A stretch of 64,000 nucleotides of DNA, taken from contig OZ237735.1 of assembly GCA_965178125.1 (NCBI GenBank), forward strand, positions 930,001 through 994,000, given 5' to 3'. The DNA is from Bilabrum cf. latius (taxonomy: Eukaryota). The position numbers were made by a program, and so were the translations under genes. This document shows positions 1 to 61,673 of the stretch, in pieces; position 1 is the first letter of the stretch; each line of letters begins with the position of its first letter. Under the pieces are notes generated by a model. It was not told the DNA's origin. It made no database searches and worked only from the letters and a program-made list of their open reading frames with translations.

Positions 1-3000
1 GACCCCTTCACGCCAGACCCAGATGACACAGACACAGACCCGGACTCGCCCACCGTCGCAGACCCAGACCCCACTGACACTGACCCAGACGTGCCCGACC
101 CTGCAAGCCCGCTGCCCACTGTCACGCTCCCGCTCAGACCCGCCGTGGACTTGCCAGATACCACCGACACCGTGCCCGACGCTCCAGCAGACCCCACGCC
201 ATCCGCCGACCGCACCGTCACCAGCCCGCTCGTGGCCTCGCTGGCGCCCACGCCAGATGCCACGGACACCAGCCCGCCCGTGCTGGACGTGTCCGTCGAC
301 TCACCGCCGAACACGTACACCGACCCGCCCACGCCCGATGACGCCTTCGAAGACGTCACTGACACAGACCCAGACGCGCCCAGCGAGGACTCGCCGGCCG
401 ACAGCACCAGCCATCCCACAGACCCGGACCCCACGTTCCCGGACTCCACCAACACATGGCCGCTGCTGCCCACGTGCGCCGCGCCGCTACGCAGCACCAG
501 CCCGCCCGACGGGCCGCCGGAGCTCACGCCCGATCCCACCGTCACCGACCCAGACCCGGAGCTTGACGCAGACCCGGACTCCAGACTCACAGACCCAGAC
601 GACCCCTTCACGCCAGACCCAGATGACACAGACACAGACCCGGACTCGCCCACCGTCGCAGACCCAGACCCCACTGACACTGACCCAGACGTGCCCGACC
701 CTGCAAGCCCGCTGCCCACTGTCACGCTCCCGCTCAGACCCGCCGTGGACTTGCCAGATACCACCGACACCGTGCCCGACGCTCCGGCAGACCCCACGCC
801 ATCCGCCGACCGCACCGTCACCAGCCCGCTCGTGGCCTCGCTGGCGCCCACGCCAGATGCCACGGACACCAGCCCGCCCGTGCTCGACGTGTCCGTCGAC
901 TCACCGCCGAACACGTACACCGACCCGCCCACGCCCGATGACGCCTTCGAAGACGTCACTGACACAGACCCAGACGCGCCCAGCGAGGACTCGCCGGCCG
1001 ACAGCACCAGCCATCCCACAGACCCGGACCCCACGTTCCCGGACTCCACCAACACATGACCGCTGCTGCCCACGTGCGCCGCGCCGCTACGCAGCACCAG
1101 CCCGCCCGACGGGCCGCCGGAGCTCACGCCCGATCCCACCGTCACCGACCCAGACCCGGAGCTTGACGCAGACCCGGACTCCAGACTCACAGACCCAGAC
1201 GACCCCTTCACGCCAGACCCAGATGACACAGACACAGACCCGGACTCGCCCACCGTCGCAGACCCAGACCCCACTGACACTGACCCAGACGTGCCCGACC
1301 CTGCAAGCCCGCTGCCCACTGTCACGCTCCCGCTCAGACCCGCCGTGGACTTGCCAGATACCACCGACACCGTGCCCGACGCTCCGGCAGACCCCACGCC
1401 ATCCGCCGACCGCACCGTCACCAGCCCGCTCGTGGCCTCGCTGGCGCCCACGCCAGATGCCACGGACACCAGCCCGCCCGTGCTCGACGTGTCCGTCGAC
1501 TCACCGCCGAACACGTACACCGACCCGCCCACGCCCGATGACGCCTTCGAAGACGTCACTGACACAGACCCAGACGCGCCCAGCGAGGACTCGCCGGCCG
1601 ACAGCACCAGCCATCCCACAGACCCGGACCCCACGTTCCCGGACTCCACCAACACATGGCCGCTGCTGCCCACGTGCGCCGCGCCGCTACGCAGCACCAG
1701 CCCGCCCGACGGGCCGCCGGAGCTCACGCCCGATCCCACCGTCACCGACCCAGACCCGGAGCTTGACGCAGACCCGGACTCCAGACTCACAGACCCAGAC
1801 GACCCCTTCACGCCAGACCCAGATGACACAGACACAGACCCGGACTCGCCCACCGTCGCAGACCCAGACCCCACTGACACTGACCCAGACGTGCCCGACC
1901 CTGCAAGCCCGCTGCCCACTGTCACGCTCCCGCTCAGACCCGCCGTGGACTTGCCAGATACCACCGACACCGTGCCCGACGCTCCGGCAGACCCCACGCC
2001 ATCCGCCGACCGCACCGTCACCAGCCCGCTCGTGGCCTCGCTGGCGCCCACGCCAGATGCCACGGACACCAGCCCGCCCGTGCTGGACGTGTCCGTCGAC
2101 TCACCGCCGAACACGTACACCGACCCGCCCACGCCCGATGACGCCTTCGAAGACGTCACTGACACAGACCCAGACGCGCCCAGCGAGGACTCGCCGGCCG
2201 ACAGCACCAGCCATCCCACAGACCCGGACCCCACGTTCCCGGACTCCACCAACACATGGCCGCTGCTGCCCACGTGCGCCGCGCCGCTACGCAGCACCAG
2301 CCCGCCCGACGGGCCGCCGGAGCTCACGCCCGATCCCACCGTCACCGACCCAGACCCGGAGCTTGACGCAGACCCGGACTCCAGACTCACAGACCCAGAC
2401 GACCCCTTCACGCCAGACCCAGATGACACAGACACAGACCCGGACTCGCCCACCGTCGCAGACCCAGACCCCACTGACACTGACCCAGACGTGCCCGACC
2501 CTGCAAGCCCGCTGCCCACTGTCACGCTCCCGCTCAGACCCGCCGTGGACTTGCCAGATACCACCGACACCGTGCCCGACGCTCCAGCAGACCCCACGCC
2601 ATCCGCCGACCGCACCGTCACCAGCCCGCTCGTGGCCTCGCTGGCGCCCACGCCAGATGCCACGGACACCAGCCCGCCCGTGCTGGACGTGTCCGTCGAC
2701 TCACCGCCGAACACGTACACCGACCCGCCCACGCCCGATGACGCCTTCGAAGACGTCACTGACACAGACCCAGACGCGCCCAGCGAGGACTCGCCGGCCG
2801 ACAGCACCAGCCATCCCACAGACCCGGACCCCACGTTCCCGGACTCCACCAACACATGGCCGCTGCTGCCCACGTGCGCCGCGCCGCTACGCAGCACCAG
2901 CCCGCCCGACGGGCCGCCGGAGCTCACGCCCGATCCCACCGTCACCGACCCAGACCCGGAGCTTGACGCAGACCCGGACTCCAGACTCACAGACCCAGAC

Positions 3001-9000: not shown

Positions 9001-12000
9001 GACCCGGACCCCACGTTCCCGGACTCCACCAACACATGGCCGCTGCTGCCCACTGTGCTAGAGCCGGTGCCCAGTCGTAACAACCCGGACGATCCCGACC
9101 CAGCCGTACCAGTCAGCAGCGATCCAGACCCACTGCTGCCCACGTGTGCCGCGCCGCTACGCAGCACCAGCCCGCCCGACGGGCCGCCGGAGCTCACGCC
9201 CGATCCCACCGTCACCGACCCAGACCCGGAGCTTGACGCAGACCCGGACTCCAGACTCACAGACCCAGACGACCCCTTCACGCCAGACCCAGATGACACA
9301 GACACAGACCCGGACTCGCCCACCGTCGCAGACCCAGACCCCACTGACACTGACCCAGACGTGCCCGACCCTGCAAGCCCGCTGCCCACTGTCACGCTCC
9401 CGCTCAGACCCGCCGTGGACTTGCCAGATACCACCGACACCGTGCCCGACGCTCCGTCAGACCCCACGCCATCCGCCGACCGCACCGTCACCAGCCCGCT
9501 CGTGGCCTCGCTGGCGCCCACGCCAGATGCCACGGACACCAGCCCGCCCGTGCTCGACGTGTCCGTCGACTCACCGCCGAACACGTACACCGACCCGCCC
9601 ACGCCCGATGACGCCTTCGAAGACGTCACTGACACAGACCCAGACGCGCCCAGCGAGGACTCGCCGGCCGACAGCACCAGCCATCCCACAGACCCGGACC
9701 CCACGTTCCCAGACTCTACCAACACATGGCCGCTGCTGCCCTCTGTACTTGACCCGGTGCCCACACGCAGCGACCCGGACGACCCCGACCCAGCCGACCC
9801 AGTCAGCAGCGATCCAGACCCACTGCTGCCCACGTGCGCCGCGCCGCTACGCAGCACCAGCCCGCCCGACGGGCCGCCGGAGCTCACGCCCGATCCCACC
9901 GTCACCGACCCAGACCCGGAGCTTGACGCAGACCCGGACTCCAGACTCACAGACCCAGACGACCCCTTCACGCCAGACCCAGATGACACAGACACAGACC
10001 CGGACTCGCCCACCGTCGCAGACCCAGACCCCACTGACACTGACCCAGACGTGCCCGACCCTGCAAGCCCGCTGCCCACTGTCACGCTCCCGCTCAGACC
10101 CGCCGTGGACTTGCCAGATACCACCGACACCGTGCCCGACGCTCCGGCAGACCCCACGCCATCCGCCGACCGCACCGTCACCAGCCCGCTCGTGGCCTCG
10201 CTGGCGCCCACGCCAGATGCCACGGACACCAGCCCGCCCGTGCTCGACGTGTCCGTCGACTCACCGCCGAACACGTACACCGACCCGCCCACGCCCGATG
10301 ACGCCTTCGAAGACGTCACTGACACAGACCCAGACGCGCCCAGCGAGGACTCGCCGGCCGACAGCACCAGCCATCCCACAGACCCGGACCCCACGTTCCC
10401 GGACTCCACCAACACATGGCCGCTGCTGCCCACTGTGCTAGACCCGGTGCCCAGTCGTAGCGACCCAGACGATCCCGACCCAGCCGTACCAGTCAGCAGC
10501 GATCCAGACCCACTGCTGCCCACGTGCGACGCGCCGCTACGCAGCACCAGCCCGCCCGACGGGCCGCCGGAGCTCACGCCCGATCCCACCGTCACCGACC
10601 CAGACCCGGAGCTTGACGCAGACCCGGACTCCAGACTCACAGACCCAGACGACCCCTTCACGCCAGACCCAGATGACACAGACACAGACCCAGACGTGCC
10701 CGACCCTGCAAGCCCGCTGCCCACTGTCACGCTCCCGCTCAGACCCGCCGTGGACTTGCCAGATACCACCGACACCGTGCCCGACGCTCCGGCAGACCCC
10801 ACGCCATCCGCCGACCGCACCGTCACCAGCCCGCTCGTGGCCTCGCTGGCGCCCACGCCAGATGCCACGGACACCAGCCCGCCCGTGCTCGACGTGTCCG
10901 TCGACTCACCGCCGAACACGTACACCGACCCGCCCACGCCCGATGACGCCTTCGAAGACGTCACTGACACAGACCCAGACGCGCCCAGCGAGGACTCGCC
11001 GGCCGACAGCACCAGCCATCCCACAGACCCGGACCCCACGTTCCCGGACTCCACCAACACATGGCCGCTGCTGCCCACGTGCGCCGCGCCGCTACGCAGC
11101 ACCAGCCCGCCCGACGGGCCGCCGGAGCTCACGCCCGATCCCACCGTCACCGACCCAGACCCGGAGCTTGACGCAGACCCGGACTCCAGACTCACAGACC
11201 CAGACGACCCCTTCACGCCAGACCCAGATGACACAGACACAGACCCGGACTCGCCCACCGTCGCAGACCCAGACCCCACTGACACTGACCCAGACGTGCC
11301 CGACCCTGCAAGCCCGCTGCCCACTGTCACGCTCCCGCTCAGACCCGCCGTGGACTTGCCAGATACAACCGACACCGTGCCCGACGCTCCGGCAGACCCC
11401 ACGCCATCCGCCGACCGCACCGTCACCAGCCCGCTCGTGGCCTCGCTGGCGCCCACGCCAGATGCCACGGACACCAGCCCGCCCGTGCTCGACGTGTCCG
11501 TCGACTCACCGCCGAACACGTACACCGACCCGCCCACGCCCGATGACGCCTTCGAAGACGTCACTGACACAGACCCAGACGCGCCCAGCGAGGACTCGCC
11601 GGCCGACAGCACCAGCCATCCCACAGACCCGGACCCCACGTTCCCGGACTCCACCAACACATGGCCGCTGCTGCCCACGTGCGACGCGCCGCTACGCAGC
11701 ACCAGCCCGCCCGACGGGCCGCCGGAGCTCACGCCCGATCCCACCGTCACCGACCCAGACCCGGAGCTTGACGCAGACCCGGACTCCAGACTCACAGACC
11801 CAGACGACCCCTTCACGCCAGACCCAGATGACACAGACACAGACCCGGACTCGCCCACCGTCGCAGACCCAGACCCCACTGACACTGACCCAGACGTGCC
11901 CGACCCTGCAAGCCCGCTGCCCACTGTCACGCTCCCGCTCAGACCCGCCGTGGACTTGCCAGATACCACCGACACCGTGCCCGACGCTCCGGCAGACCCC

Positions 12001-32666: not shown

Positions 32667-35600
32667 GACGCTTCCGGAAGCTGATGTTCCTGAGCTTATC
32701 GTGATTTCTCCAGAACGTCCTCTTGATACACTACCTGTTTGCATTTTCAGGCCGCCAGAGTTTCCTGATGTTGCATCGCCGCTTGTAACCGTTACTAATC
32801 CGGAATCTCCTGATGTTGATTCACCAGTTATTAGTTGGACTTGACCAGTCGTTCCTGCTAACGTGGTTCCAGTTTTTATTCTTACAGATCCAGAATTCGT
32901 GTTGCCGGAGTTGCCAGTTGAGACTTCTATTTGACCGGATTGACCTCGAGTTGAATCTCCTGTTGACAGTGATACGGAGCCTGAAGTAGCTGATGCGGTG
33001 CTTCCAATGGCTGTTCTAATATCAATGTAGCCGGTGCTTGACCCAATGCCGCTGGTACCGCTTGTAAGTTTTATGGAGCCGCCTTGGTGGACGCTTGAGT
33101 CGGTTTGGCCAGCGGAGAGCAGGATAGATCCCCCAGATCTCGTTTTGGCCTGACCAGCACGTACCTACACCTGACCGGCTTCACCATTGTTTGAAGATCC
33201 AGCTGACAGAGTTACCCAACCTGCATCACCGGATGCTGTATGACCTGTCGCAAGATACACTTGGCCTGAAGTCCCGTGGGAAACAGTACCAGTTGACACC
33301 TGAACTGATCCGCTGCCTGCTCCCGCTGCTGTACTTCCAGTCGAAAGATGAATTGTGCCAGAGAGACCGGTATCCGCAGATCCAGTTTTCAGAGAAATAT
33401 CCCCACTTGATGCAGACGTGCCAGTGACAGCCGGAGATCGAATGTGAACATGCCCAGAGCTGGATGACAGGCTGGCCCCAGACACCAAAGAAAGCAAGCC
33501 TCCAGTTCTGGCTGGTACATTGGAGCCAAGACTATTGCCGGCTTGAATATACATCAGAGCACCAGAGAGCTGCTCTGAAGTACCAGCCACTATGCTCATT
33601 GTACCTGCTCTTCTATCTGCTAGACCTGTGGTGAGCAAAGCGTTGCCACTATTGGAGTTTGATGAACGACCGGTCGAAAACAGGAGGTCTCCAGACGCTT
33701 CAACATCAATTTGGCTGCTTGGTACTGTTGACGCTCCTGACATAACACGAATGGAACCAGACACTCCAAGCGTATTATCACTTGACCTGATAGAAACCAG
33801 TCCTGTCGTACCAGCTTCAACCGTGCCCGAAGCAATTTCGACTCTCCCACTCATCCCTGACACCGTTGACCCTGACAGAACCGATACACTGCCACTGTCA
33901 ATGCTATTAGCTGCCACATTGGCAGACCTCAATTGTACCCAACCAGAGGTCGATACAGACCCAGCGCCAGAAACGATGTCAATGGCGCCCCCAACAGCGG
34001 TGCTGTCAAGGGTGTTGCCGCCTAGTACACGGACCATGGCCCCGTTACCTACCCCTGTTGAGCCAGGCGCGACGTCTACTCGCCCAGCTGAGCCCTACGT
34101 CGCAGATCCAGAGCCCAAGGAGACATCGCCAGAGTCCCCACCGGTTGAAATGCCAGACCCGATCTCAATTCCACCAGATGTGCCAGCCGCCGTGGAGCCG
34201 GACTAGATCACGGTACTTCCAGATGAAGTCACGCTACTGCTTGCAGAAAGAATACTCACATCACCGCTCGTGACAGATCCTTTCCCAGACAGAACAAGTA
34301 TGTTGCCACCTGAACCACTGGTGGAGTCTCCGGCCGAAACTGTAACATCCGCCCCCGCTCCACTGTCAGAGCTACCGGCAGCGATTTGAATAGAGCCTGA
34401 CCTGCCCCCTGAAGCTGCACCCGTTGCTAGATATAAGGTTCCAGCGTTGTCAGTAGCTGTACTTCCAGTGAAAATAGACACGTCGCCGGATTGTCCGGAA
34501 CTGCTGGCATCAGCAGACCGAATCGAGACATGGCCTGATGACGACGATGTACCGCCTCCGGAAGCAAGCGACAGCAACCCTCCACGGCCTTCGGCATGCA
34601 GACTAGCTCCTGCCCTGAGGCGAAGCTGCGCTCCATTACCGCTTGTGGAGCTGCCTGGAATCACATCAATGTCTCCTGCTTGGCCAAGCAACGGGGACCC
34701 AGTCTGCACTCTCACGCTGCCGGATGGCCCTTGCTGGGGGGTACCGGAACCAAGCATAAGCGACCCGCTAGCTGCTTGCTTCACATTCCCTGTCTGAATT
34801 GAAATACTTCCACTAACAACACTGGCAGCGGTTCCTGCAGCAGAAAACATGCGAATCGATCCAGTTATGCCATCACTGCTGCCGCCAGAGAGCAGAGACA
34901 AAACACCTCCATTTTGCGCAGTTCCAGTGGCTGCGCCGGCAGCAATAAATGTCGAAGAGCCTGTACCGCTACTGGAAGGGCCAGGGTTGATCTAGATCGT
35001 TCCAGCTGTACCCGAAGTTGGTGCACCGGTTCGAATCTTGACGTCACCGCTTCTGTACGAGTCACTGGATCCCGTACTGACATACACTGCACCAGAACTA
35101 GCACCCCTACTGTCACCAGTGAAAATGCTGACCGATCCAGACGAAGCTAAAGTTGTAGCCCCGGAATGTAACTCGATTGTGCCACTACCTGATCCTTCGG
35201 ACGAGCCAGACATCACTGCAATAGAGCCTGAGCTTCCTAGTTCCGTGTTTCCAGTCGACAACAGAATCTATCCTGTCTAGCCTTGCGGATTTGCGCTTTG
35301 CGTCCGAAGCAAAATGCTCCCTGTCTCAAACTAGGAGCTGGATCCTGTTAGCACGTCGAAGCTCCCCCCGCGAGAATTCGCTCCTCCTGTGGTACCTGGC
35401 CGCACAACAACATCCCCCCCATTTCCAGAGTCACCGAGTCCAACTTCAATCCGAATCGCTCCACCGGCACCAGCTGTTGCTGCGCCAGAAAACAACGAAA
35501 TAGCGCCAGAGGGTCCACTTGCAGATGTACCAGTTTCTAAAAGCATGTGTCCGCTTGACCCCCCAGGCCCGCTATTCTGCGAGCGAATACGAACGCTTCC

Positions 35601-38600
35601 AGAAGAAGTCTCAAGCGACTTCCCCGAAACTAGCTCGATGGTGCCACCTGCCCTTGTGCGCGCTGAGCCTGCTTCAACATAAACAGGGCCGCCTGAGTTC
35701 TGTCCGGATCCAGTAGCACTGCCGGCAACAATGCTCACACTGCCACCAGATATACCTGTCACGTCGTTAAGGGCACGTGTTGAGCCTGCCTGAATAACAA
35801 CGTCGCCTCCATCTAGAGTTCCATCACCTGAACCAACTGAAATGCTGATGCTACCACCAGATCCCCCAATTCCAGATCCCGAACGAAGCAAAATTTCTCC
35901 GCCACGGCCTCCGAACGAGTTCATACCGTCTCCACTCGATATATCAACAACTCCCCCAGCTGCTTGATTGCCCTGCGTTGATCCGGCAGATATTGAGATA
36001 GAACCGCCAGAATAGTCGGAGAATGGATTCATAGAATCTCCGACTGAAAGCGATATGTTCCCACCTCTACCCTGAGTTCCATCCGCTGTTGAGATGTTCA
36101 CGGCCCCCGTGTCACCAACTGCTGATTTTCCCGTCCGTAGTACGATATTGCCACTCTACCCTCTTAGTCCGCCATCAGATGATAACATTGAGAGAGAACC
36201 AGACTAGAACAGACTGCTCTTTCCACTACGGATAAGGATATCGCCACCGTCATCCCCTTCGGAATACCCTGCGTCCAACGTAACAGATCCACCTTTCTTG
36301 GAGTCAATCGCCGTGACAGGTCCGGCTACAATTGATATGCCCCCACCTCTTGCACCACTTCCAACGGAACCTCCACTACGAATTGTTACCTGGCTGCTGC
36401 GATCAGTTGATGCGCCATCGCCAGAGCGAATACTAATATCTCCAGCGCGAGAGCCACGGCTGGAAATACCAGTTCCAGTTCGAATGCTTATGTTTCCGCT
36501 TGCGCCTCCGAACGACAACCCAGTTTTGATGTCGACATTGCCGGATTCTCCATCGAGGCCAGAGTCGGCCGAAGCCAAAACCACTCGACCACTCGAACCA
36601 ACTATGCTAGAGCCACTTAGAATCGAGGTGTCTCCACCAGAACCCGTCAATGCGATTCCAGCAGCAATCGAGACGTTTCCCCCATATCCAGCAGATTCCC
36701 CAACGGACCGCCCGGCGAGGATCGTCACACCTCCTCCTTCTCGAGCTGAGTCGCCACTAAAAATCTCGACCTGTCCACCAGCGACATCTGCAAGTGTTGA
36801 ACCAACTTGAATTGAAATATTTCCAGGTCTACCAGCCTCGCTGCTTCCAGACGTGACCCGAACATCACCACCCTGTCCACCTTGAATATGAGTGGAGTTA
36901 CCAGCCAGCAGCTCAATTGATCCTCCAGAAGCCATGTAACCGGTCGTGGAACCCGGAGCGATCACGAAATCTCCAGCTGCTCCGCCCCCAGCGTCACCTG
37001 TTCCGACGCTCACAGCCCCGGATGATCCCGTTTCAGAGTTACCTGATCTGATCAACACATCACCAGAGTTGCCATACAGTGTAGGACCTGAGCCTATCGA
37101 AACCATGCCGGACTGGTCATCTCTCCCAGAAGCACCTGTATGTATCTCTACGTCCCCGCTGCTGCTTCGAGAGGAGTCTCCAGATCGAATCGAAACAGAC
37201 CCACCTTTGCTGGCAACAGAACTACCAGCAGCAATCACTGTATCCCCACCGGTACTGGACTCTGAACTCGACGCTGATCCGGCCAATATACTCACTGAGC
37301 CTCCTGTACCCTTGTATCCATCCGAATTTCCGGCAGAAACGAGTACAGAGCCAGAAGTAGCCGAATCTTCACCGGATCCGCCAGCTGCGACCGTAATGGA
37401 GCCAGAGACCCCGAACTACGAATCCCCAGACTTCACGTCAAGACCTCCTGACCCGTCTACAGCTGTTCCCGATCCAATCAGTACAGAGCCAGACTCGGGT
37501 GAAATCGCCGAAATGAGTGAAACATTCCCGCTGCGTTTCTCTATTGATGAACCACTTCTTAGAATAATGTCGCCGCCGTCGCTGGCAACTCCTCTCCCAG
37601 CAACGGCCTCAAAAACACCCCCGGTGTATCCAGCTCCAGCAACAATTCGAACAGCGCCTCCAGCATCAGAAGGTTTTTTAGGCTCCAAAACACTTCCGCC
37701 AGACAGCTCAGCAACACCTGGCTGCCCTTGGCGCACCGAGCCGACCTGGAGGCGCACGCTACCGCTGGATCCTCTGTCAGTGTCTCCAGATGCCACAAAC
37801 GTTGTACCAGTGTTTCCAAACCGAGTCGACCCTGACACTACTGAGACTGCCCCAGAGCTAGACAGTCGGTTCAGTTGATTTGATGTCCCACTTGCAGAGT
37901 GTAACAGCACGTCTCCGGACGTTGATAGTGCGCCGAAGGCCTCACCAGAGTGCATCGTGAGAGCACCGCCAGCCAAAGTGTCTTGGTGGGATGAGCCTGC
38001 GGATACTTTCACCATCCCGCCAACTTGACTGCTCCCCGCCACCACATTCACAGCACCACCTTGTCCACGACTAGACGAAGAGTTGCCGGCATGAACAAAA
38101 AGGGTACCTCCACGGATGTCCGAATCCAAGCTGCCCAGTGCAGAACCAGCGAAGACAGAAACATCTCCTCCAGATGCCTCGTAGCCGTTGCCACCAAGAA
38201 CTTGCACTGAACCGCCAAGTGACTAGATTCCAAGCTGTTCACTTCCACTGCCTGCTGCGAGCATGGCGCTACCTGCAACAGACACTCCACCAGAAGAATC
38301 AGGCCCGCCAACATCAGAGATGGAACCAGCTCGAAGTTCCACACTGCCTGCCTTTCTCCTGCCAGCTCCAGCGGATACGACCACATCACCTGAGGACTCA
38401 AAACCCTCCCCACTCGCAATGTGAACACTACCAGAGCTACCAGCTCTCGCTGGTCCAGACGATACCTCAACTCGACCCGTGCCCTAGCGCGCGCCATCCG
38501 ACCCTGCTGTACTGACGAATGCACGCCCCGAACCTGCTTGCCCTACTCCAGAAATTAGCATTACATCACCACCAACGCCACTTTCGGAAGAGCCACCTTT

Positions 38601-41600
38601 CATGGTAGCTGAGCTACTTTCGTCGGTTGTCGACAAACCAATAGAGGCGCCACCGATGCCGTTCCCGCTCCCGGCTTGCAAGTCGACGGATCCTCCCCTA
38701 ACTCCTCCCGGCCCTGCAGATATCGAAACGCTTGCGCCGACTCCAACTCTAGAGTTTCCTGCTGTCACGGTGACGTTGCCAGGATCCTCAACTGCATTCC
38801 CAGTAGAAAGTCGTAGCCCGCCCGATCCTTCGATTCCACTACCAGTGTCCAGGCTAACTGGTCCACTGCTTGACACAGAGGAAGCCGATGAAATGCGGAC
38901 TCCACCGGAACCCCCTGCTGCATTTCCTGAAACCATCACAGCCGAACCTCCCATGTCTCCTCTGGGTCCTTCCGCGTGCAGTCTAGCCCCTGTACCAGAT
39001 GGCGATGATCCACCTTCGACCACAGCACTGCCAGACCTAGACGCTAGCGAGAATCCACCTCGAACCACAACATTGCCACCATCTGACTGTTTTGATGTTC
39101 CAGCTAGAACGGATACATCTCCAGAGTCTAGAGTTGAGTCCCCAGATCGAACAACAATACCTCCTGACGCACCGCTTCCATTTCCAGATGTGATACTCAA
39201 GCTTCCGGATGGTGCCCCGCGCGAGCTTGCCTCCCCTGATCGGATCTGTACATCTCCTCCTGGCCCAGTTCTGCTGCTTCCAGCTGTCACCTCAACCATC
39301 CCGCCTTGCACTGCAGAACTATTCGAGTTTCCGGATAAAATTCTGATATCGCCTGGTACAACTCGCGAGTGAGCATGACTTGCTCGCCCATCGCCGGCTT
39401 GGAGGGTGATCGAACCAGCTGCGCCTCTTCTTCCAGTAGCAGAGCCCGTCGCTATTTCCAGGCTCCCGGAATCAGCATCCTTGCCGAATGCGTTCCCAGA
39501 AGAAAGAGTGACCTGACCTGTTGTGCTAGCGTTGCTTCCTGTCTGAATACTGAGCTACCCAGTCGAAGCGTTAGCTGCAGAGGCATCTGCCGTTCTAACT
39601 ACCACTGCGCCTGTCGCGTCGTTTGATGGTCCAGATTCAACCAGGACTTCGCCTCCACGCCCCGCGAGCGCCAGTCCGCCCCGAATTGCAACTGCACCTC
39701 CAATGCTCTGATTGGATGGCCCTGTTGATGCACCGCCACGAATGCTCACAGTACCCGCATTTGCAACTGCACTGGCACCACCGGTCAGGAATACGCTAGC
39801 GCTTCGATTCGATAGCGACTTCCCAGCTTCTAGCCGAATGCTTCCAGGGTGTGACGCAGCTCCAGTGCGGATTGATACCGCTCCACTTGAGCCCTTGTTC
39901 GAAGTTGTGTTGCCTGACACAAACGCAATTGAGCCTGTGTGCAAGTATCTACCGCCGACAGTGGATACTACGACGTTTCCACCTGTGCCATTAGACCTTG
40001 ATGGACCTCCCGTGAGCTTGGCGGTCCCACCTAATAGTGTACCGGCTCCGCCAGATACTTCTGCAAGTCCTCCCTGCAGTCCACCTCCGCCACGGATAGC
40101 AACTGCGCCCCCTGACGACACTCCGGATCCGCCGTGCACCGCAACAGATCCGCCAGATGCGTCCTTACTTGACCCTCCCATTACTTCGACCTCCCCTGCA
40201 TGCGTCTTGCCGGACCCACCAACCACTCGCACCGCTCCAGCTACTTCAACTGCATTCCCGGAACCAACTAAAACGTTACCAGTCGATGATGCGTTTGCAG
40301 ATCTCACAGAAACAGAACCGCTAGTACCCACTACCGAACCACCAGAGACGAGCTCGGCATGACCACCTCTGGCATCTGTGGACAGCCCACCAGCGACAAG
40401 TACTGACCCGGCAGACGAACCTGTTCCTGCGTGCCCACCGACTACATGTACGTGACCTGCAGAACCGTTCAAGTGCGCTTCGCCACCGCCAACTCTCACT
40501 GATCCGGCACTTCCACGGAATGAAGAACCTCCTTGCAACTGGACTTCTCCGCCAAAGCCAGACTCTCCGGTACCATTACCAGCATGCATATACAAACCTC
40601 CACTAGCACTGGCAGATCCAGATGAACGCAAATAAATGGACCCTGCATCACCATCGCTTGAGCCATTCCCAGACGAAATGTGAACATTACCACCTGTTCG
40701 CAAGCCAGATGATTTGGAGGCAGGAAGAAGCTTCCCTCCACGAATCCATACATCTCCTGCCTGGACACCTTGGGATGCACCAGCTTCGACCAGCACGTTG
40801 CCCTTCCCTGATGTCGACGTGCCACCGACTACTTCGACTGTACCAGGGTTCCGGGCAGTGCCGGTTGAGATTCGAACAGCACCGCTACCTGACTACGAAT
40901 CGTGCGACTTCAACTCTACTGATCCACTGGATGCTTCTCCTGACGTCGTGTTGCCTGAGACTATTGATACTGAGCCTCCCTGTACGTGGCCAACCCCAGC
41001 TGTAATACCAACTGATCCACCATGCGAATGTCCTGCACCTGGCAGTATCAAGACGTCCCCAGATGTACCATTCGATGACCCTGACGACACAACCACATCC
41101 CCAGATACCTCGCTGCCATTTCCCGATCGAAGTACGAGTTGTCCACTTCTTTGAGTGGTCAATGTAGACTGCGAGGATACAAACGACCCTGAAGTGATGG
41201 ACACGTCCCCAGTAGCGTTTCGCGAATTCGGCAGGTAGGAGAAACGCTTGTGCCTTGACTGCATCGCTGCAACAAGGTCAATCGCAATACGAATCTTGTT
41301 GACCTCGTGAAAATCCTCCAACTTAAACCCGGCTTCATCGAAGCTCATCTCGTCATTAACTGTGATATACTCTGGAAATACCTCGCGTACCTCTTGAGCA
41401 ATTACACCACGAACTGTCCTATCCTCAATACCACGTACCCGTCGCCAGACATCGGTGTACCGATATCGCTTCACTCGTAGCTTCAGCATGCGGTGCATAA
41501 GCTCGTCTTCATCCACAGATACAATGTCTTCCTTGATCCTTCTGTCGGATGGGGAAATCACTTCCACGAGCTCGGCCGGAACGTGAGAGAATATCTTGTC

Positions 41601-44600
41601 GCGTCGTACTCGAAATGGGATCTGGCCAGGCGGTGAGTCTTCGTGGGAGACGCGGTACTCGCCGTTGCTTCCGACGAGCGTGTCAATGTTCCGACCACTC
41701 ATCTACAACTGGCCGTCCTACGCGTTGACTCTAACAGCACCAGATCCTGCAACTTCGATCGAAGAAGAATTCGAGTTTCCAACTCGAACTTGTACGGCAG
41801 CATGGCCCTCATCGGTGCTGCCAGAGCCTTGGATTATGACAGCTCCGGCAAGTCCTGTGGCAGATGTGCCCGCAGCAATGCTTACTGAACCCCCACCGCC
41901 TTTCGTGCCAGCTCCTCCAACTATGTTCACCGATCCTCCCGAGCCGCCGTCACCGCCACTCACCGTGACCGATCCGGGAGTATCAGTTGCCGAACCAGAC
42001 GAAATCGAAACATCTCCTGAGCTCAAAGAGTCAGATTTTGATCGGAGCATAACAGAGCCACTGCTCCTGGCACCTTGCCCAGACTCGAGCAGAATTCCAC
42101 CACCCTATCCCAATTTCTACTGGCCACCGACGAGCTTGATCCGTCCGCCTGACGTTGAATCAGAATAACCTCCAGATACAACCACACCCCCACCGGATTC
42201 ACTGGTGGACGAGCCTGCAGAAATGGACACACTTCCTGCAAGACCATTGGGGGCGTGCCCGGCTGCAATTGCTATGTCACCCCCGGCTCCCAAGCTAGAC
42301 TAGCCTGCCGATACGCGGATGGTACCAGCAGATCCACTTCGTACAGACCTAGTCTTGATGCTCACTGCTCCAGAGGATGCCCCACCACCACTTAGCAGTG
42401 TTAGATCACCTCCTATTCCATTCATGTGTCCGTCGCCGCCTTCAAGTGATACGCGACCCGCCGTTCCATTCAACTCAGTGCTATTGCCACCACGGAGCAA
42501 GACTGCGCCGCCCGCTTTGCCGCCGCTGCCACCTTGCATTGCAGCAGAGCCACCTTGCCCAACCGTAGCTGTCGAATGCCCAGCTTGCAGGGAGATCCCT
42601 CCACCGGTGCGAGCATTGCCAAGGGCGTCGCCAGATCGCAGTTCAACAGCACCGGCACTGCCCATGGCTCCACTGACGTTGCCTGCAGCGATTCGCACTC
42701 GACCAGAATGGGCTGCAGTCAAACGGCTGAATGCCTGCCCTGTGCCAATGTCAAGGTTGCCAGACGACACGCTAGCAACATCATCGATGGGGGCGCTGCC
42801 TGTTTCGATTTGAATCGGCCCCGATTCAGCAGATGAGTGTTGATCTCCGGTGCTAAGCGGGGATCCAGATCGAATTGATACGAGTCCGGCTACTTGAGTG
42901 CTATTTCGACTAGTGAACACTCCTCCCGACAGTATTCGGACCGCACCGGACTAGCCATCTGACCCCAGTCGAGAGTTACCCCCTCGAATTTGAACAGACC
43001 CTGCGACTCCACGCCTGTTTGATCCTGTCTGCAGTTTGATCGACCCTGAAGAAGCCTTGCTTGACGAGAGTTCACCAGATTCCGCAACAATGCTCCCAGT
43101 GCCACCGGAGGATCCTTCCAGAGCTGGCTGAGAACCGAGATGAACAGAGCCTGAATCAGCATACTTGGACCCACCTCCGCCACGTACTACAATGTTTCCA
43201 CCGGGTGACTTAGAGTGCTGGCCGGCGGCTCCGCCTTGCAGCTCAACTTCACTACCTCCAAACTGGCCTCCGGAAGCACCAGCCCGAAGCCTAATCCCAC
43301 CGCCAGCACCTTGCTCACTGGACCCTGATACCAACGAAATTGTACCCGCAGTGCCTTCTAGTGAGGCTGACCCTGTGCGGATCAGAGCGCTGCCGGTGCT
43401 TGTCTTGTGATCAGCAGTCTGCGGGGCGGGAGCGGTCTGTAGCACGACACTTCCGGATTCAAATCCCCTTCCAAGACCACTGGTGATTGAGACAGTCCCA
43501 CCTATACCAAGCCCCTTGCCAACATCACCACCTCGAATGCTTACGCTTCCAGCCGAGGCTGCAGCCGGAACTGACCCAAAGGCTGCAAACTGGGGGTCAA
43601 TGCCAGACACTGCGCCTCCACTGACTGAGACTGTACCGCCTGAATGGCCTGTGGGAGTTCCAGGCTACGCAATACCTGCTCCTGCAGAAATCTCAATGCT
43701 GCCGCCGCTAGTACTCTTGGTTGCCAAGCTAGGGGGAACGACTGCGTCGCCAGCCGCAAGGCTGACACCTGCTCCGGTGTGTGCGACTGAGGCCCCCGCT
43801 CGAATATTGAGGCCTCCTGCAGGCTTCAAGTGCTATGCTTCAGCCATTGGTACCGCCCCACCGTTGGCTACCTATGCAAAGATGGGAGATGATCCAGTCA
43901 CAATGTTGATGGCTCCAGAGCCACGAGCACCCGCTGCCCCGGAACCCAACGTGACGCTTCCAGAAGATCCAAGCTTGCCAGCGTTCGATGATCTTATGAC
44001 AACTCGGCCAGACTACCCATTTCGACTGCCACCAGATCGAATTTCAACGGAACCGCCACCATCGCCTGTATCAATTCCAGGCGATGTGTCATCTCCTGCA
44101 TGAATGGCCACAGACCCACCCCCAAGTGCCCCAGGCCCTGCCGCAAGAGATACTGAGCCAGATCTTCCATGAGCAGACTCTCCTGATCCAAACACTGCGC
44201 TGCCGGAGGGTCCTCCGGAGAGCCCGGATCTTACGTCCACGTCACCCGACGCTTGAGTCGTTGTCTGGACGGCACTCCCAGATGAAATTCGAACTAGGCC
44301 CGAGCTTTGGGAAAGTTTTCCCTCAGCAGAACCTGATACAATGTCTACGGAACCACCACGACCGCCTCCACGCACGCCTCCAGCAACCACTTTGATTGCT
44401 CCGCCTGATGCAGTGGCCAACCTCGAGGCCTGGCTGCCAGCGAGTATCTCTACACCACCCGCATCGGTTCGCGATGAAATAGACGGTGACCTGGCATGAC
44501 CTGCAGCGATTCTGACCCCTCCAGCTTTGCCATGCGTGCGAGACTGCGAGTCGCCGGCAGAGAGCAACATACTCGCACCAGAAGAAACTGCTGAACTGCC

Positions 44601-47600
44601 TCCCACAAGAGAAATATTTCCAGCCAGTCCGCTTGCAGCGCCACTTGCGATGGAGACTGACCCGCTCTCCAGCTCAGCACTCGCAGACCCAAGACTGACG
44701 TTGCCGCTGGCGCTTGAGTTTGATGCACCAGATAAAATGCCAACTGAACCTCCAGACCCGCCAGAGCTAGAACCAGCTTCTACACGAACAGAGCCGCCCG
44801 TTCCATGAGCAGCAGAACCAGCAACAACTTGCACACTTCCAGCAGCAGATTCGTGGAGGTGCGACAAGCCAGAGCTATTCCCAGCCTTGATACTTACGTG
44901 ACCTCCATTGCCATGGCTTGGGCTTAAACTAGATCCTGACTCTAGAGTTAGATCCCCAGCCTTAGAACCGTCCCCAGTTGAATCTCCGGAAGCAACACCA
45001 ACGGCTCCAGAAGACTCTCCGCGGCCACTGCCAATTCGTACCAAACCGCTGCCGGAGGTCTCTGAGCTGTTCCCCGTTTGGGCAATCAATGAACCACTTG
45101 GACCTTCTTCTGATCCAAGTCCAGTACGAATCTGAATATCTCCACTCTTGCCCTGCATCTGAGCACCATCGGGAGTCAGGACCTCAACATTTCCCGAGGA
45201 GCCCCCAACCTTGCCGCCGCCGCGCCCACCTGCCAGGCGAACAGTGCCACCTACTGAGGAAGAGGTGGTAGGCACAGCGCCCGCTTCAATGCGGACGTTT
45301 GCCCCAATATGAGAGAGACTTCTCGTCTTTCCCGCCCGAATTTCGATCTGCCCAGCAGACGCTGCAGCAGCTACGCCGGATCGGATCCCCACTGGGCCGC
45401 TACTACCGGCGGTTGAAAGGCCACTTTCGATGTCTATTGAACCAGACTCTCCGCGTGAGCCGCCATCTTGCGTTCTTATCCTAATTCTACCACTAGACTG
45501 CTGCCGCGAGGCTCCAGAAAAGATCGATACATCACCGCCAACACCCATGGTGGCATTGCCACCGGATATGGCAACTACTCCACCTTGGTCCAATCGGTGG
45601 CCTCCAAACGACTTGCCAGCTGAGATTTCGACGCTACCTCCGTCTCCTCCGTCGGCAAACAAGTCGCTGGTTCCATCACCCGCAGAAATTCGCACTGCTC
45701 CGCCTGACCCACCGTCAGCTGCGTCATCTCCAGCTCGCATTGACACTGATGCACCAAGTCCGCTTCTACCATCGCCAGCTGCAATGCCAATGCTTCCTCC
45801 GGCTGCATCGCTTGCACTTGATCCTGCTTGCAAGGCAATAGAGCCGGCATCGCCGCTCTGCGCACTTCCTGTCCGAATCTAGATACCTCCAGAGGACCCA
45901 GCGATCCCGGAATCGGCCGTGCTCATCTAAATGGGACCTGACGTGCCTCCAACTGATGCGCCAGAAGACACTAGTACGTTTCCACCGATTGCATCGGGAG
46001 ACGTAGACTTCGTGGTCCCTGCGGATAGCAAGAGAGACCCAGCGATCGGTGCATTCCCAGCGCCGACATTAATCGCCACGTCACCGGCCCGACCATTCGT
46101 AGAATCACCAGTTGAGATGGTGACGCTGCCAGAGTTGCCCAGATTGGACTTGCCGGTTCCAACCAGCACCGTGCCGCTAGCACCTCGAACACCTCCATCA
46201 GCGGTAAGCAGACCGACACTTCCAGAATCGCCTCGTCTCGATTCACCAGAGATCACGAGAGCATCGCCGCCGGCGCCTTCGTCAGCATCCCCACCCTCTA
46301 GGCTGGCATCACCTCCACGATCATTGTCCTGGCTGCGGCCGAGACTGGAGCCGCCGCGTACTACGACCCTGCCTCCGTCACCGCCATCTACAGTAGACGT
46401 TGACGACCCTTCGCCACCGGTGAGAAGTACGTCACCGCCGGCATACCCAGCGGCGGTAGACCTCCCACCATGCACCCTAACCCTCCCTCCATCGTTCTCA
46501 TCGCCATCTCCAACGGCAAGAAGGATATCCCCGCCAGAACCTCCCGCTGCGGGCCCGGACTGTAGGAGGATGTCGCCCGACTCTCCGTCAGACGACTAGC
46601 CCGTGCTGAGCACGACGTCACCTGAGACGCCCGAGGTGCCCGCATTGGCTGTTCCGATCCGCATAGACCCGCTGCTGCGGGAATCAGACGAGCCAGAAGA
46701 CAGCTCCAGCGAGCCACCGGCACCCCCGCGAGCAGATCCAGCAGCAATTCGAACGTGGCCTCCGGTGTCTGCTGGGTTCATTCCAAACGAGTCACCAGCG
46801 TCCAAAATAACATCACCGCCATCCCCGCCGTTCCCTGGATCCTGAGATGTTCCGTCCCCAGCACGAATGTGGACAGCACCGCCCTGGCCACCAGGTGAGG
46901 CTGTAGTTCCGGAAGCAATGGTAACCTGGCCACCATCGCCAGTGTCTCCGGCTCCAACTGAGACACGGACATCTCCACCAGCCCCACCCTGCGATGGACC
47001 TGACTCGATCGACACTGAACCTGATGGCCCATTTGAGGCGATACCACTCCGAGCAGAGATGCTTCCAGATGCGCCCGCGGCAGCGTCAGAAGAGCGGATC
47101 TGCAGGTCCCCTGAGGCCTGTCGGGAAGATGCCCCGGACTCGATCACCACCTGACCACCCCTGTCATTGGCAGATGATCCACCACGCAGAATAGCGTCAC
47201 CACCTGCACCACCTCCAGAGGCATCTCCACCTTCAAGCACGGCGCTTCCACCAGCCGCAGTCGCAGCTTGCCCGCTCGCAGCACCTCCGGACAGCACCAG
47301 CGGTCCTCCCGCGGCTCTAGTTCCCGATGCAGTCCCTCCAGTGACACTGGCAAGTCCGGCCTGCGACGCGAGATTGCCTGACGCTGACCCCGCATTGAGG
47401 CTCAGCCGAGATCCGTCTCCGGACTGCAAGCCGGTCTCGCCGACAGATATGTCTACAGAGCCTGCCTGGCCCTGCTAGGAGTGCCCCGTAGAGAGTGACA
47501 AGGATCCCGAACGACCACCTGGTGACTAGCTAGACCCAGAGCTGATAGTAACCTCTCCCGAGTTGCTGCTGGGCGACGCAGGACCGGCAGCTGCACTTCT

Positions 47601-50083
47601 GAGCACCAGCCTGCCTGATGAACTACCGCTGCCGGCACCGGCGCCGCTGGCAAGCTCTACAGACCCGCCGTCACCTGACAGGCTTTGGTCCAAGCTATCC
47701 CCAGCGCTGACAGTGACTGATCCTCCATTTCCAGATCCAGATGACCCTGACGATACCGACACATTGCCTGCAGCCCCATGCCTAGCATCTCCAGATTGGA
47801 GCACGACGTGTCCAGATGCAGCGCCGGACGCGGTGGCGCCACCAGATGAAACAGACACGGTCCCACTCGAGGCCGTCGCGTTGCCGCGAGTGCCACCATC
47901 GCTGGACGTCAGCACAACACTGCCGCTCGCTCCCATAACAGAACGCCCTGAAGCGACGCGAACGTTTCCGCCGGTTCCACCGACGGCCTCACCGCCCACA
48001 ACACTTACGTCGCCACCTGTGCTGGCCTCGCCTCCTCCGAGCCCACTGCCTCCTTGAAGCAAGAGCTTGCCCCCGGATCCTCCGCTGGAGGTCGCCCGCG
48101 AGGTTCCGTCTCCGCCAGTGATGGAGACTGCTCCTCCAGAAGCACCTGGAGCGGCGGCGATCCCACCGCTCACCGACACGGCAGCCCCATTGCTGGAGCT
48201 TCCTGACTCGCCGGGGCCGATGCTCACTGCCCCAGCCTGACCGTCAGTGGCTTGTCCTGTCGACAGATCCAGCGCGCCAGTTAGAGCATCTTGGCCGCTG
48301 GCGGACCCGGTGGAGAGCTGCACGTCCCCCGTCACCTGCCTGTCCTGTCCCGCGGCGGGGACCACGCGGCTGCTTGCGCTCGCAACCGACACACTGCCGG
48401 ACTGGCCAAGTTGCGATGCGCCAGACTGCAGCTGGATGTCGCCGCCATGTGCCTGGGGCGCCACCGCAGAGCCGGCCACCAGCACTGCGTCGCCTCCTCC
48501 CTCGATGGACTCCGAGGCACCGGCGCTCAGCCGAAGCTCCCCTCCCTTGCCCGCGCCGGTACCGTGGCTGCTGCCAGCAGCGATGGTGACATTGCCTGCG
48601 GTACCGTTTCTCGTACTGCCGCTCCCAACTAGTACGGAGCCGCTTGAGCCAGGCCCGTCCTGCTCTCCCGACTGCAGGGACGCATCGCCTGACCGGACGC
48701 CTCCTTGACCGGATCGCAGGAGCAGCCGGCCTCCAACGTACGTTCTAGATCTTCCACCGGAAACAAGAGCTTCTCCTCCGGTGCCATCTTCAGCAGCTCC
48801 GCCTGCCACGTGTACTGGGCCTCCCAGACCAGCGCCACCATGCGTGGCAAGTCCGCTGGATGCTCCTCCTTCGATGGATACCCTACCTCCAGAGCCCCGA
48901 TCAACGCTGGTACCAGATCCAGCTAGAATTGACACGCTGCCACCAGCACCTGCTGTTCCGCTGTCGTGGCCGCCCTGTATGGAAGCATCGTCGGCCGAGA
49001 CGACCTGCACTGTCTCGTCATTCGCAACTATTCCAAAGTCTTTGGCGGCTCCTCCGCTGTCCAAGGTGCTTCCCTTAGTTGTTAAGGAACCTCCTCCAAA
49101 CTTTGGGTCGCTGACAACGGAAAGATCTCCGACAACCTTGCTTACTGCGCTCGATAAATGGCAAATCAAACTCGCGGAATACAATGCAGTGCACGTCCCC
49201 GCCGCGTGGCCAGGTAAACTACCCTTGACGACTCACTCTGCACAAAGGTATCGGGGCATGGAACATCGAATACCGTGCCCCGACAGTTCGCTCCAAGGGC
49301 ATCAGAAACTGTCATGCAGCTGCTCTCTGATGCGCACCACGCGCACTCATCTTGGCCGGCGCAAGATTCGCACCCAAGCAGGGAGTACTCTTCGCACTCC
49401 GGCTTAACTGCGAATAGCCAAAACAAAACAAAGCATGTACATTGTATGCGACGTGCCTGGTTCGAAGTGTTTATCGTGCACTGACAGCAACAACTGCGAC
49501 TGGATTCTGACGCATCGACTCACTCGGGCATTCTTCATTGTCGGAAACAATATCGGGGCATTCGGCCTCATCCGCCTCATCTATGCACTACAATGTGGCG
49601 ATGCAAAATGTGCACCCCTCCTGTGTGCACGGACTGCAGGCCCCGACAGCATCCCTGCGACGCGAGAATAGCCACAACGAGAACCGAATCAGCTTACTTT
49701 TGAGTCATACTGGCCTGAAAACAAAACAGATTATCCTGAATTAACATTACCATGCCAATGTCACTGAATCTGGGCGAAAACTGGCCTCTTGAAGTGTTTC
49801 GACGCTTGAATCTGGCAGGCCGACACTCCGGGGATGGAATCAGAGTTCTGAAACCATGCTAGAGCTTATAGTCATCCGTAAACGAAGGCTACTAATTCAA
49901 CCGTAGTCTCAGCTGGATGCTTCTACCCGATTTATCCAGGAGTTTGTGTTCAATACGTTGCCTGTCTCACCAGTAGTCTCCGTCGATCGTGTGCTGAGAG
50001 CATGAGGTAGTCGCTACCGCTGTACCAGCTACCAGAATCAACAAACTGAAGTTGTACATTTTGCACAATTGGTGCTTGTACAT
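1..50083 (-). CDS. Giant secreted Gly/Ser/Val-rich repeat protein (>=16,519 aa in window, 3' end beyond window): signal peptide, 2 PSI-like modules, ~15-aa beta-coil repeats, internal Peptidase S74 (ICA) domain, 200-aa tandem array. Model: join(50083..49971, 49654..49524, 49407..49237, 49144..<1) with TAG read as sense
   Basis: All 16 minus-strand Gly/Ser ORF fragments from 33165 to 49184 share one frame and each ends in TAG. Reading the gaps by hand gave 13 more TAGs and no TAA/TGA. From 33164 to 1 the frame has no stop at all; the ORF track missed it because it leaves the window. Three GTGAG..CGCAG introns join the upstream exons in phase. The start may be ATG 50083 or 50059. Confidence 0.9.
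41244..41552 (-). other. Peptidase S74 / intramolecular chaperone auto-processing domain (MYRF-ICA-like) within the giant protein
   Basis: PSDRRIKEDIVSVDEDELMHRMLKLRVKRYRY...GVIAQEVREVFPEYI...LEDFHEVNKIRIAIDLVAAMQ matches the S-D-x-R-x-K, YRY, GVIAQEV..P and VNK motifs of MYRF and tailspike chaperones (recognised from memory). Putative catalytic Ser at 41549..41547 and Lys at 41534..41532. Confidence 0.9.
49145..49236 (-). other. Intron 3 of giant gene (92 nt)
   Basis: GTGAGT...GCGCAG; the phase-1 join puts exon 3 in frame with the 49-kb exon (FVQ-I-SKVVGDL). Confidence 0.8.
49237..49654 (-). other. Two PSI/plexin-like cysteine-rich modules (exons 2-3 of the giant gene)
   Basis: CSPCTQEGCTFCIATL*CIDE...CP and CEEYSLLGCESCAGQDECAWCASESSC...C...CP show the CxxC-x4/5-Cx(W/F)C-x5-C spacing. 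One in-frame TAG at 49590..49588. Confidence 0.7.
49408..49523 (-). other. Intron 2 of giant gene (116 nt)
   Basis: GTGAGT...T-rich tract...TCGCAG; the phase-1 join gives CP-I-KPEC. Confidence 0.8.
49655..49970 (-). other. Intron 1 of giant gene (316 nt)
   Basis: GTGAGA...TCGCAG; the phase-2 join TG|G gives Trp in DGDYWDAVGAC. Confidence 0.6.
50012..50083 (-). other. Predicted signal peptide of the giant protein
   Basis: MYKHQLCKMYNFSLLILVAGTAVA-TTSC: basic N-region, hydrophobic core and an A-V-A cleavage motif. Confidence 0.65.
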
Positions 50084-61511: not shown

Positions 61512-61673
61512 ACGGCCCCTCTCCAGAAGAGTGCGGGGCTGCCCTCATCACATGCTGTGTTCCCGTGTGCGGGGGAGAAAGATGGGCATTCAACACAGCG
61601 AATAATGAGAGGATTCGCACGCCGATGGTATCAATTTAATGCAAATCTATTTCTTAATAGCGCGTGTCTTCGC

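Follow-up and report, generated by a model that had tools for sequence, protein, structure and literature searches.

The 64,000-nucleotide (nt) stretch of contig OZ237735.1 analysed here (positions 930,001 to 994,000, assembly GCA_965178125.1 of Bilabrum cf. latius; hereafter the window) carries on its minus strand a real spliced gene of giant size that reads TAG as a sense codon. The gene has four exons, begins with an ATG at 50083, and comprises 16,519 codons, including 30 in-frame TAG, inside the window. Almost all of its product is built of 15-residue Gly/Ser-rich repeats, within which lies a Peptidase_S74 domain with an intact Ser/Lys dyad, and both the frame and this architecture are conserved in relatives. 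From these features we infer secretion, trimer formation, cleavage, fibre geometry and a cellular role, and we regard it as reasonably likely that the gene encodes a secreted trimeric S74 fibre precursor that cuts itself into two fibres. The part of the protein that lies in the window already exceeds 1.46 MDa per chain, which would rank it among the largest of any organism; titin and the PKZILLA synthases are reportedly larger.

Gene model and genetic code

The minus-strand frame at 3..49232 runs for 16,410 codons with 29 TAG, 0 TAA and 0 TGA, and its TAG codons are confined to 33167-47528. In the part of this frame that is not made of near-identical units (32745..49144), the coding frame has 0 TAA plus TGA in 5,466 codons, compared with 60-211 in the five other frames, an openness that is far beyond chance. 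The ATG at 50083 is the first in-frame ATG downstream of an in-frame TAA, as judged by reading the sequence, and reading of the minus strand also yields three GTGAG donors and three CAG acceptors with consistent phases. The original prediction, made by a model from the letters of the window, had proposed a single frame free of TAA and TGA from 49144 to the window edge, and this frame is borne out, with both 49144 and 50083 exact. It had also called the gene invisible to standard-code open reading frame (ORF) calling, which is correct for the gene as a whole but not for the array described below, which is itself a 10,914-amino-acid (aa) ORF under translation table 11 (3..32744). The parts of the gene are as follows, where X5 denotes contigs from a public sequencing run and L numbers denote metagenomic relatives.

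49971..50083, minus strand: exon 1, signal-peptide-like hydrophobic start, ending ...GDYW (sequence reading, hydropathy and an X5 joint)
49655..49970, minus strand: intron 1, 316 nt, GT..AG, skipped by an X5 contig; plus-strand ends CT..AC
49524..49654, minus strand: exon 2, first Cys-rich module, with 7 Cys and one in-frame TAG; homologous exon in L008, L021 and L033
49408..49523, minus strand: intron 2, 116 nt, GT..AG; an X5 contig joins 49407 to 49524, with a shorter side of 130 nt
49237..49407, minus strand: exon 3, PSI-like 8-Cys module (C..C..C.WC...CRGTVF..PCP)
49145..49236, minus strand: intron 3, 92 nt, GT..AG; X5 joint 49144/49237
49144..<1, minus strand: exon 4, running off the window edge and consisting of part a, the S74 region, part c and part d
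41703..49144, minus strand: exon 4 part a, ~2,480 residues of divergent 15-residue Gly/Ser repeats, the putative N-terminal fibre; X5 contigs lie within it
41193..41702, minus strand: neck and Peptidase_S74, with the Pfam match at 41367..41549, the Ser codon at 41547..41549 and the Lys codon at 41532..41534
32670..41192, minus strand: exon 4 part c, ~2,840 residues of divergent 15-residue repeats after S74, collinear with L006
1..32669, minus strand: exon 4 part d, an array of at least 54 near-identical 200-residue (600-nt) units, running off the window edge

The splicing of this gene is visible in X5, a single run whose library type is unrecorded, which a tool guessed to be "probably DNA", and which comes from a study other than that of X1-X4, the probable source runs; none of the runs with matching contigs is listed as RNA. 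Its short, low-depth contigs cover 26 of 30 bins over 32.8-50.4 kb, all 28 of the placed contigs are at least 99% identical to the window, and their joints (49144/49237, 49407/49524 and 49653/49970, the last with the cut at +1) correspond exactly to the three predicted GT..AG introns. All three introns are retained in the X1 contig, which derives from DNA. The three small exons proposed ahead of the long one are hence confirmed both by sequence reading and by the X5 joints. The X5 evidence covers the non-array part of the gene and bears on its introns, not on one continuous transcript.

TAG, and TAG alone, is a sense codon in this organism, because the giant frame has 29 TAG and 0 TAA, and because the stop codons of ORFs are TGA or TAA. 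Within the gene's divergent part, CAA occurs 64 times, CAG 77 times, TAG 29 times and TAA 0 times; if TAA were used as CAA is, its absence against 29 TAG would have P = 2.4e-8. The neighbouring ORFs for VPS26, a GT41-family glycosyltransferase, an ankyrin-repeat protein and a leucine-rich repeat (LRR) protein each carry 2-7 in-frame TAG, and they end in TGA (VPS26, ankyrin and LRR) or TAA (GT41). In addition, two metagenomic relatives also need TAG as sense: L006 (3,778 codons, 25 TAG, 0 TAA/TGA) and L007 (10 TAG, 0 TAA/TGA) are open end to end solely under that reading. As for the residue inserted, TAG is most likely read as Gln. At 39 sites where a TAG of the giant gene or L006 faces an ordinary residue, Gln fits best, with log-likelihood differences from Gln of -1.4 for Asp, -4.1 for His, -4.8 for Lys, -6.4 for Ser and -28 for Leu. 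At both TAG sites of VPS26, two relatives (90% and 98% identical) carry Gln, which lends this assignment weak support; these entries may themselves have been translated with TAG as Gln. The TAG site in the GT41 ORF aligns with Pro at a variable position, the repeat context in the giant gene gave no information on the encoded residue, and a tRNA scan of the window returned 0 genes. The locus documents a rare nuclear code with TAG alone as sense, one that has reportedly been seen in phyllopharyngean ciliates as well. Nuclear codes in which only UAG is sense are described for a rhizarian (Leu) and for Iotanema (Gln) (PMC5304391).

The S74 domain and the repeat body

To our knowledge, every S74 domain studied so far acts as a trimerising chaperone. 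In the giant protein the domain lies ~2,670 residues from the start, where ORF residues ~2511-2680 are non-repeat and match Peptidase_S74 (PF13884) with 49.5 bits against a cut-off of 22 (E 5.3e-13). The original prediction had called for a search for PSI modules, Gly/Ser repeats and S74 in one architecture, and S74 indeed stands inside the body of this very protein. The best PDB match of the region is the MYRF chain 7dc3 (E 2.7e-11), whose ADLRAK lies opposite SDRRIK in the alignment. The catalytic dyad is intact (SDRRIK, 41532..41549), with Ser and Lys five residues apart, the same spacing as in SDLRIK of MrfA, and the D and R-I-K of the motif are at least 90% conserved in an alignment of 57 sequences. 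The corresponding residues, Ser767/Lys772 in MrfA and Ser911/Lys916 in endoNF, are essential for self-cleavage after trimerisation (PMC3828593).

Modelling in three copies suggests that the S74 region of the giant protein would also trimerise. The modelled piece was a TAG-free stretch of 269 residues, covering the neck, S74 and ~100 residues of the repeats that follow, and ESMFold2 gave it scores of 0.90, 0.91 and 0.91, whereas none of 3 controls scored above 0.00. The runs agree in at least 96% of their contacts, partner chains have a predicted local distance difference test (pLDDT) of at least 85, and the predicted interface is formed by residues 5-63 (the neck), the S74 helices and the first repeats that follow S74 (residues 185-251). 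In the calibration of this mark, which used two copies, 21 of 30 proteins solved as pairs of one chain passed, as did 0 of 23 single chains.

The repeats themselves are strictly organised. Hydrophobic residues in exon 4 recur with a period of 15, with autocorrelation peaks at 15, 30 and 45 residues, and the 15-mer consensus is G-x-[SG]-G-x-[VIL]-x-[VIL]-x-[STA]-G-x-[SA]-x-x, in which Gly reaches 97% and 95% at two positions. The 16,380 residues of exon 4 correspond to ~1,090 such units, have a Gly+Ser content of 42-55% and include 0 Cys, in agreement with the earlier impression of a Cys-free body. About 1,000 units of 15 aa had been predicted; the period and the approximate number stand, whereas the description of the last 32.7 kb as plain 15-mers does not, that part being at least 54 tandem units of 200 aa. 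A Pfam scan of the repeat pieces gave just zero-stretch Kelch noise on the array.

In the array, a script placed 54 unit anchors from ORF residue 5522 onward, of which 46 are spaced by 200 aa, 5 by 230, 1 by 215 and 1 by 185, so that all length variants are whole 15-residue steps, or multiples of 45 nt. The mean DNA identity of units to their consensus is 99.66%. Tandem Repeats Finder, with a longest period of 500, reported no array. The GC content is ~70% with strong skew at 1-32 kb and 55-60% in the rest of the window, and codon usage shifts sharply inside exon 4, with a GC content at third codon positions (GC3) of 0.80 in the array (1-32669) and 0.45 in the divergent repeats (32670-49144); valine in the array is written GTG 1705 times and GTT 2 times. 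The GC3 shift fits recent expansion and homogenisation of one GC-rich unit.

One may argue that the 32.7-kb array is satellite-like or inflated by the assembly and open by chance, such that the protein is much shorter or the copy number wrong. Several frames on both strands are open in it since the unit has no stops, the X5 contigs cover the region outside it, and the short-read X1 contig stops at ~32,637, where the array starts. The long plus-strand ORFs over the array (2-32704, up to 10,900 aa with TAG as sense), which encode Pro/Thr/Arg/Gln-rich nonsense, are likewise open because the 600-nt unit lacks stops in those frames. However, the frame passes from the divergent repeats into the array without a stop, the 15-residue motif likewise carries on, and the 600-nt unit varies in length by multiples of 45 nt. 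Moreover, 37 distinct sequences occur among the 46 units of 600 nt, with variants forming a mosaic, and third codon positions account for 16 of 25 variable columns (P = 0.0016). The L006 contig, too, ends at residue 5533, which is homologous to the array start here, as expected if an array follows there. This explanation is accordingly quite improbable. That L006 and X1 (near 32637) both break exactly at the array start suggests that the L006 organism also has an array and that this family is systematically truncated in assemblies.

How the repeats fold is less readily read from models of one chain. An AlphaFold2 monomer of two array units, run as a single sequence, reaches a mean pLDDT of 40.9 and a predicted template-modelling score (pTM) of 0.23, with short strands about every 15 residues; that of a 445-residue divergent segment, run with a 43-row alignment of orthologous and paralogous segments, reaches 62.1 and 0.46, with just two 3-residue strands. 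Searches with the latter model gave 0 rows in PDB by Foldseek and a best E of 5e-3 with a template-modelling score of 0.11 in BFVD, and a PDB sequence search with the 445-residue segment returned a chance row alone (E 1.3). A wide fold search with VIA-align gave a best Z of 6.4, for the curli protein CsgA (root-mean-square deviation 8.7 A, 222 residues aligned), followed by SufD-like beta-helices at Z 5.0-5.1, all under the stated noise level of 7-8.

The original prediction took each chain alone to be a beta-solenoid or beta-helix with one coil of 0.48 nm per 15 residues, forming a monomeric rod of ~0.5 um. The strict period, two alternating hydrophobic positions and two near-invariant Gly would suit such a fold, as would the short strands of the single-sequence model and the identity of the top structural rows. 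Yet this solenoid finds no support in the models: both monomers are of low confidence, the better one shows no stacked rungs in 445 residues, the structural matches lie below noise level, two hydrophobic residues per 15 would make a thin core for one chain, and the S74 domain together with its three-copy model (0.91) places repeats in inter-chain contact. We consider a one-chain solenoid rather unlikely. Alternatively, the body could be a largely unstructured, heavily O-glycosylated, mucin-like Ser/Thr/Gly polymer that S74 merely trimerises and cuts, which is an unlikely reading, if one with some points in its favour. The array is 36% Ser+Thr and 25% Gly, confidence in the monomer models is low, the repeats have no sequence relative in PDB, and the GT41-family gene lies 8 kb away. 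Against this polymer stand the exact period, the 95-97% conserved Gly and the V/I/L at fixed alternating positions, the scarcity of Pro (150 in 16,410 residues), the confident inter-chain contacts of repeats in the three-copy model, and the array length variants in whole 15-residue steps; in addition, relatives show 0 indels over 6.6 kb, where a disordered polymer would tolerate indels and phase shifts.

We prefer a trimeric fibre to a one-chain solenoid, because S74 trimerises, the three-copy model passes, the repeats after S74 are in predicted inter-chain contact and the monomer models are poor. Taken singly, a chain from an intertwined trimer might give a model of moderate confidence yet with no sheets of its own. 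The adenovirus fibre shaft (a triple beta-spiral of 15-residue repeats) and the heads of YadA-type adhesins (14-15-residue repeats) are likewise trimeric, with short repeats and conserved Gly. In contrast to these, each unit of the giant protein has a single V-x-V strand, and no sequence or fold match to them was obtained. The rise per 15-residue unit is 0.48 nm for a one-chain coil, ~0.95 nm for two strands of a triple beta-helix and ~1.3 nm for a triple beta-spiral. Since the rise depends on the fold, the predicted rod of ~0.5 um or more becomes a range, and ~1,090 units would give a fibre of roughly 0.5-1.4 um.

Ahead of the repeats, exon 1 encodes a hydrophobic core whose Kyte-Doolittle hydropathy, averaged over 11 residues, peaks at 2.6, and exon 3 has 8 Cys in 56 residues, including CAWC. 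PSI domains have 8 Cys, and the match of exon 3 to the Pfam PSI family (PF01437) is sub-threshold (18.6 bits against a cut-off of 23.1, E 0.0024), hence our term PSI-like; the 8-Cys pattern is kept in four relatives (L008, L021, L033 and L034). The 7-Cys module of exon 2 matched no Pfam family. Thus, of the signal peptide and PSI-like modules first proposed, the signal peptide persists as a hydrophobic core and the PSI-like module as exon 3 at sub-threshold level, while exon 2 as a second such module finds no Pfam match. No transmembrane-like segment (19-residue hydropathy >1.6) occurs in the 16,410 residues in view. Together, hydropathy and the Cys modules indicate that the giant protein is probably secreted, which tempers in that one word the prediction of a giant secreted fibre-like protein, the giant spliced fibre-like gene itself being supported.

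Relatives and comparable systems

A relative present in runs X6 and X7 is ~91% identical to the window from 36.6 to 49.4 kb, and its contigs, the longest of 6,575 nt, align without a single gap. In a listed subset of 40 of its 1,104 differences, third codon positions are affected 26 times, first positions 11 times and second positions 3 times (P = 4e-5). More distantly, L006 can be aligned collinearly with residues 1805-5533 (3,818 columns, 42.9% identity). At E<=1e-3, a library search with the neck and S74 block yielded 776 cluster representatives, of which 109 reach <=1e-10 and 30 reach <=1e-30; most of the representatives are fragments with 40-60% identity. A metagenome scan found 46 loci. 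Among these relatives, L009 has one standard-code frame of 5,075 aa that spans the whole locus, and L013 has repeats of 15-residue period in six same-strand ORFs over 20.8 kb, with no Pfam family in its flank ORFs. No clean C-terminus or anchor was found at the ends of the metagenome ORFs, where introns blur the ends. When 400 residues of the array were searched against proteins of 701-2,000 aa, 5 weak matches (31-40% identity) emerged.

The architecture of PSI-like module, Gly/Ser repeats and S74 recurs in metagenomic relatives. In L008, L021, L033 and L034 the PSI-like module lies upstream of S74 on the same strand, at 2,170-2,580 codon-lengths (introns included) compared with ~2,600 here, and L008 also has equivalents of exon 1 (ending ...SGDYW) and exon 2. 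P0001, P0002 and P0010 have 2-3 S74 domains among Gly/Ser repeats of the same type; in the relatives with 2-3 S74 (these three, L009 at 10001-12139, and L013) the domains are ~400-1,900 residues apart. By analogy with studied S74 proteins, multi-S74 relatives would be cut into several fibre modules, each with the preceding S74 as its N-terminus. The one named relative is CAK4417441.1, an "unnamed protein product, partial" of Aphanomyces euteiches, and in the Atlas the repeat segment is placed next to clusters of eukaryotic "Peptidase S74 domain-containing protein" (score 0.97), with Oomycota the commonest phylum.

With these eukaryotic proteins (CAK4417441.1; P0001, P0002, P0010; L008-L047) the giant protein shares the neck and S74 block at 30-65% identity, flanking 15-residue repeats, the PSI-like module and multi-kilobase size. 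It differs from them in being the longest, in its near-identical 200-residue array, in needing TAG as sense and in having one S74 in view. On sequence grounds, then, the giant gene is a member of a widespread and undescribed family of putatively secreted eukaryotic S74 fibres, and its largest member among the relatives compared. Although still unnamed, the family occurs commonly in oomycetes and in eukaryotic metagenomes from marine and fresh waters, and our literature search turned up no publication describing S74 fibres with Gly/Ser repeats as cellular proteins of a protist or oomycete. Standard gene callers fragment the genes of this family, and a whole class of surface structures may consequently be missing from protist annotations.

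The S74 chaperone of the phage K1F endosialidase endoNF and other tailspikes belongs to the same Pfam family and shares the S-x4-K dyad, the trimer (predicted here) and the position directly after a fibre segment, with the mechanism as described for those proteins (PMC3828593). In contrast to the phage proteins, the domain here is internal, with >13,800 residues after it, and its gene, in a eukaryotic host, has introns and encodes a signal-peptide-like start and Cys-knot modules; the protein has no enzymatic head and is 10-15 times larger. MYRF and Dictyostelium MrfA resemble the giant protein in being eukaryotic, in entering the secretory pathway and in having an internal S74 that cleaves itself, as predicted here. 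They differ from it in that both flanks of S74 are here Gly/Ser fibre repeats and the N-terminus would be luminal or extracellular rather than cytosolic. A MYRF-type DNA-binding domain (NDT80-type) was absent from the four scanned pieces (3,410 of 16,410 residues), in which S74 was the sole family to reach threshold, and the MYRF-type transmembrane helix after S74 is absent from the residues seen here.

The nearest case in print is that of the S74 fibres of polinton-like viruses, which are also long modular fibres in protist genomes, theirs with S74 at the C-terminus. These viral proteins contain modules of laminin-G, collagen or adenovirus-fibre type and are up to 3.9 k aa long (PMC12220804); no such Pfam modules were found here. 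Since long modular fibre proteins ending in S74 are common in such viruses of protists, it could be proposed that the giant gene is viral, a fibre gene integrated from a polinton-like or giant virus. However, it has three spliceosomal introns and uses the host code with TAG as sense, its neighbours (VPS26, GT41, ankyrin and LRR) are cellular and use the same code, and the intron-containing N-terminal structure is kept in relatives of very different GC content. Moreover, an IMG/VR scan returned 5 loci, all matching just the generic S74 core at 30-46% identity over ~60-100 residues. A viral origin of this kind is very improbable.

Putative maturation and neighbouring genes

The maturation that we envisage for the secreted trimeric precursor begins with a chain of >16,519 residues, in the order signal peptide, two Cys-knot modules, ~2,480 residues of repeats, neck and S74, ~2,840 residues of repeats and at least 54 array units. 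S74 would bring three chains into register and template the trimeric beta-structure of the preceding segment, as in phage tailspikes and MYRF, and would then cut the chain before its own Ser via the Ser/Lys dyad. Two products are predicted from this cut. The first would be a trimeric fibre with a Cys-knot tip, of ~233 kDa per chain from exon 4 plus the Cys modules, and the second, also trimeric, a fibre of >1,231 kDa per chain in which the S74 trimer would stay on as the N-terminal nucleus. Both might form sub-micron to micron-long extracellular threads; a surface coat, a hair, an adhesive or an extruded filament are guesses at their cellular role. If true, a phage tailspike maturation device would be used by eukaryotic cells for their own giant extracellular fibres, beyond its use in the release of MYRF.

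Several points weigh against this scheme. S74 is C-terminal in the studied phage proteins and internal here, with 13,849 residues following its Ser inside the window, and the passing trimer model may reflect memory of solved S74 trimers, and the model did not use the protein's own alignment. The monomer models are poor, with no fold match above noise, and secretion is argued from hydropathy and the Cys modules alone. As for the gene, X5 is taken as complementary DNA solely on account of its three spliced joints, each in one contig at a depth of ~4; the array copy number comes from the assembly alone, with the X1 short-read contig breaking at the array start; and the 3' end lies beyond the window with no stop codon in view, so that 16,519 codons is a lower bound.

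A broader and more tentative extension of the same scheme, possible though not what we would expect, is that these genes constitute a cell-encoded "poly-fibre" system derived from phage-type tail fibres. In such a system, S74 would act as chaperone for the Cys-knot-tipped fibre of fixed length (~2,200-2,600 residues) before it and as trimer nucleus for the micron-scale fibre after it, and multi-S74 relatives would be cut into strings of modules. It would amount to an undescribed class of extracellular filament in eukaryotes, serving as hairs, adhesive threads or the contents of extrusomes, and shared by oomycetes and many uncultured marine protists.

Beyond the giant gene, two of its neighbours are placed as follows.

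55865-57378, minus strand: VPS26, Pfam E 2.5e-65, with at least one intron and an N-terminal exon in ORF 57061..57378
57489-61511, plus strand: GT41-family (OGT/SPINDLY-like) glycosyltransferase, Pfam E 4e-38

The best named matches of VPS26 are at ~50-54% identity and mostly from stramenopiles, with green algae and insects scoring nearly alike. One of its two in-frame TAG falls within the conserved motif YHL-x-DV, at a site occupied by K, Q or S in other eukaryotes. The N-terminal part of the GT41 ORF contains a hydrophobic stretch, as read from its translation, and a glycosylation link between this gene and the giant Ser/Thr-rich protein is possible. Finally, an 829-codon open frame with 7 TAG lies at 61512-63998 on the plus strand and runs off the window edge.

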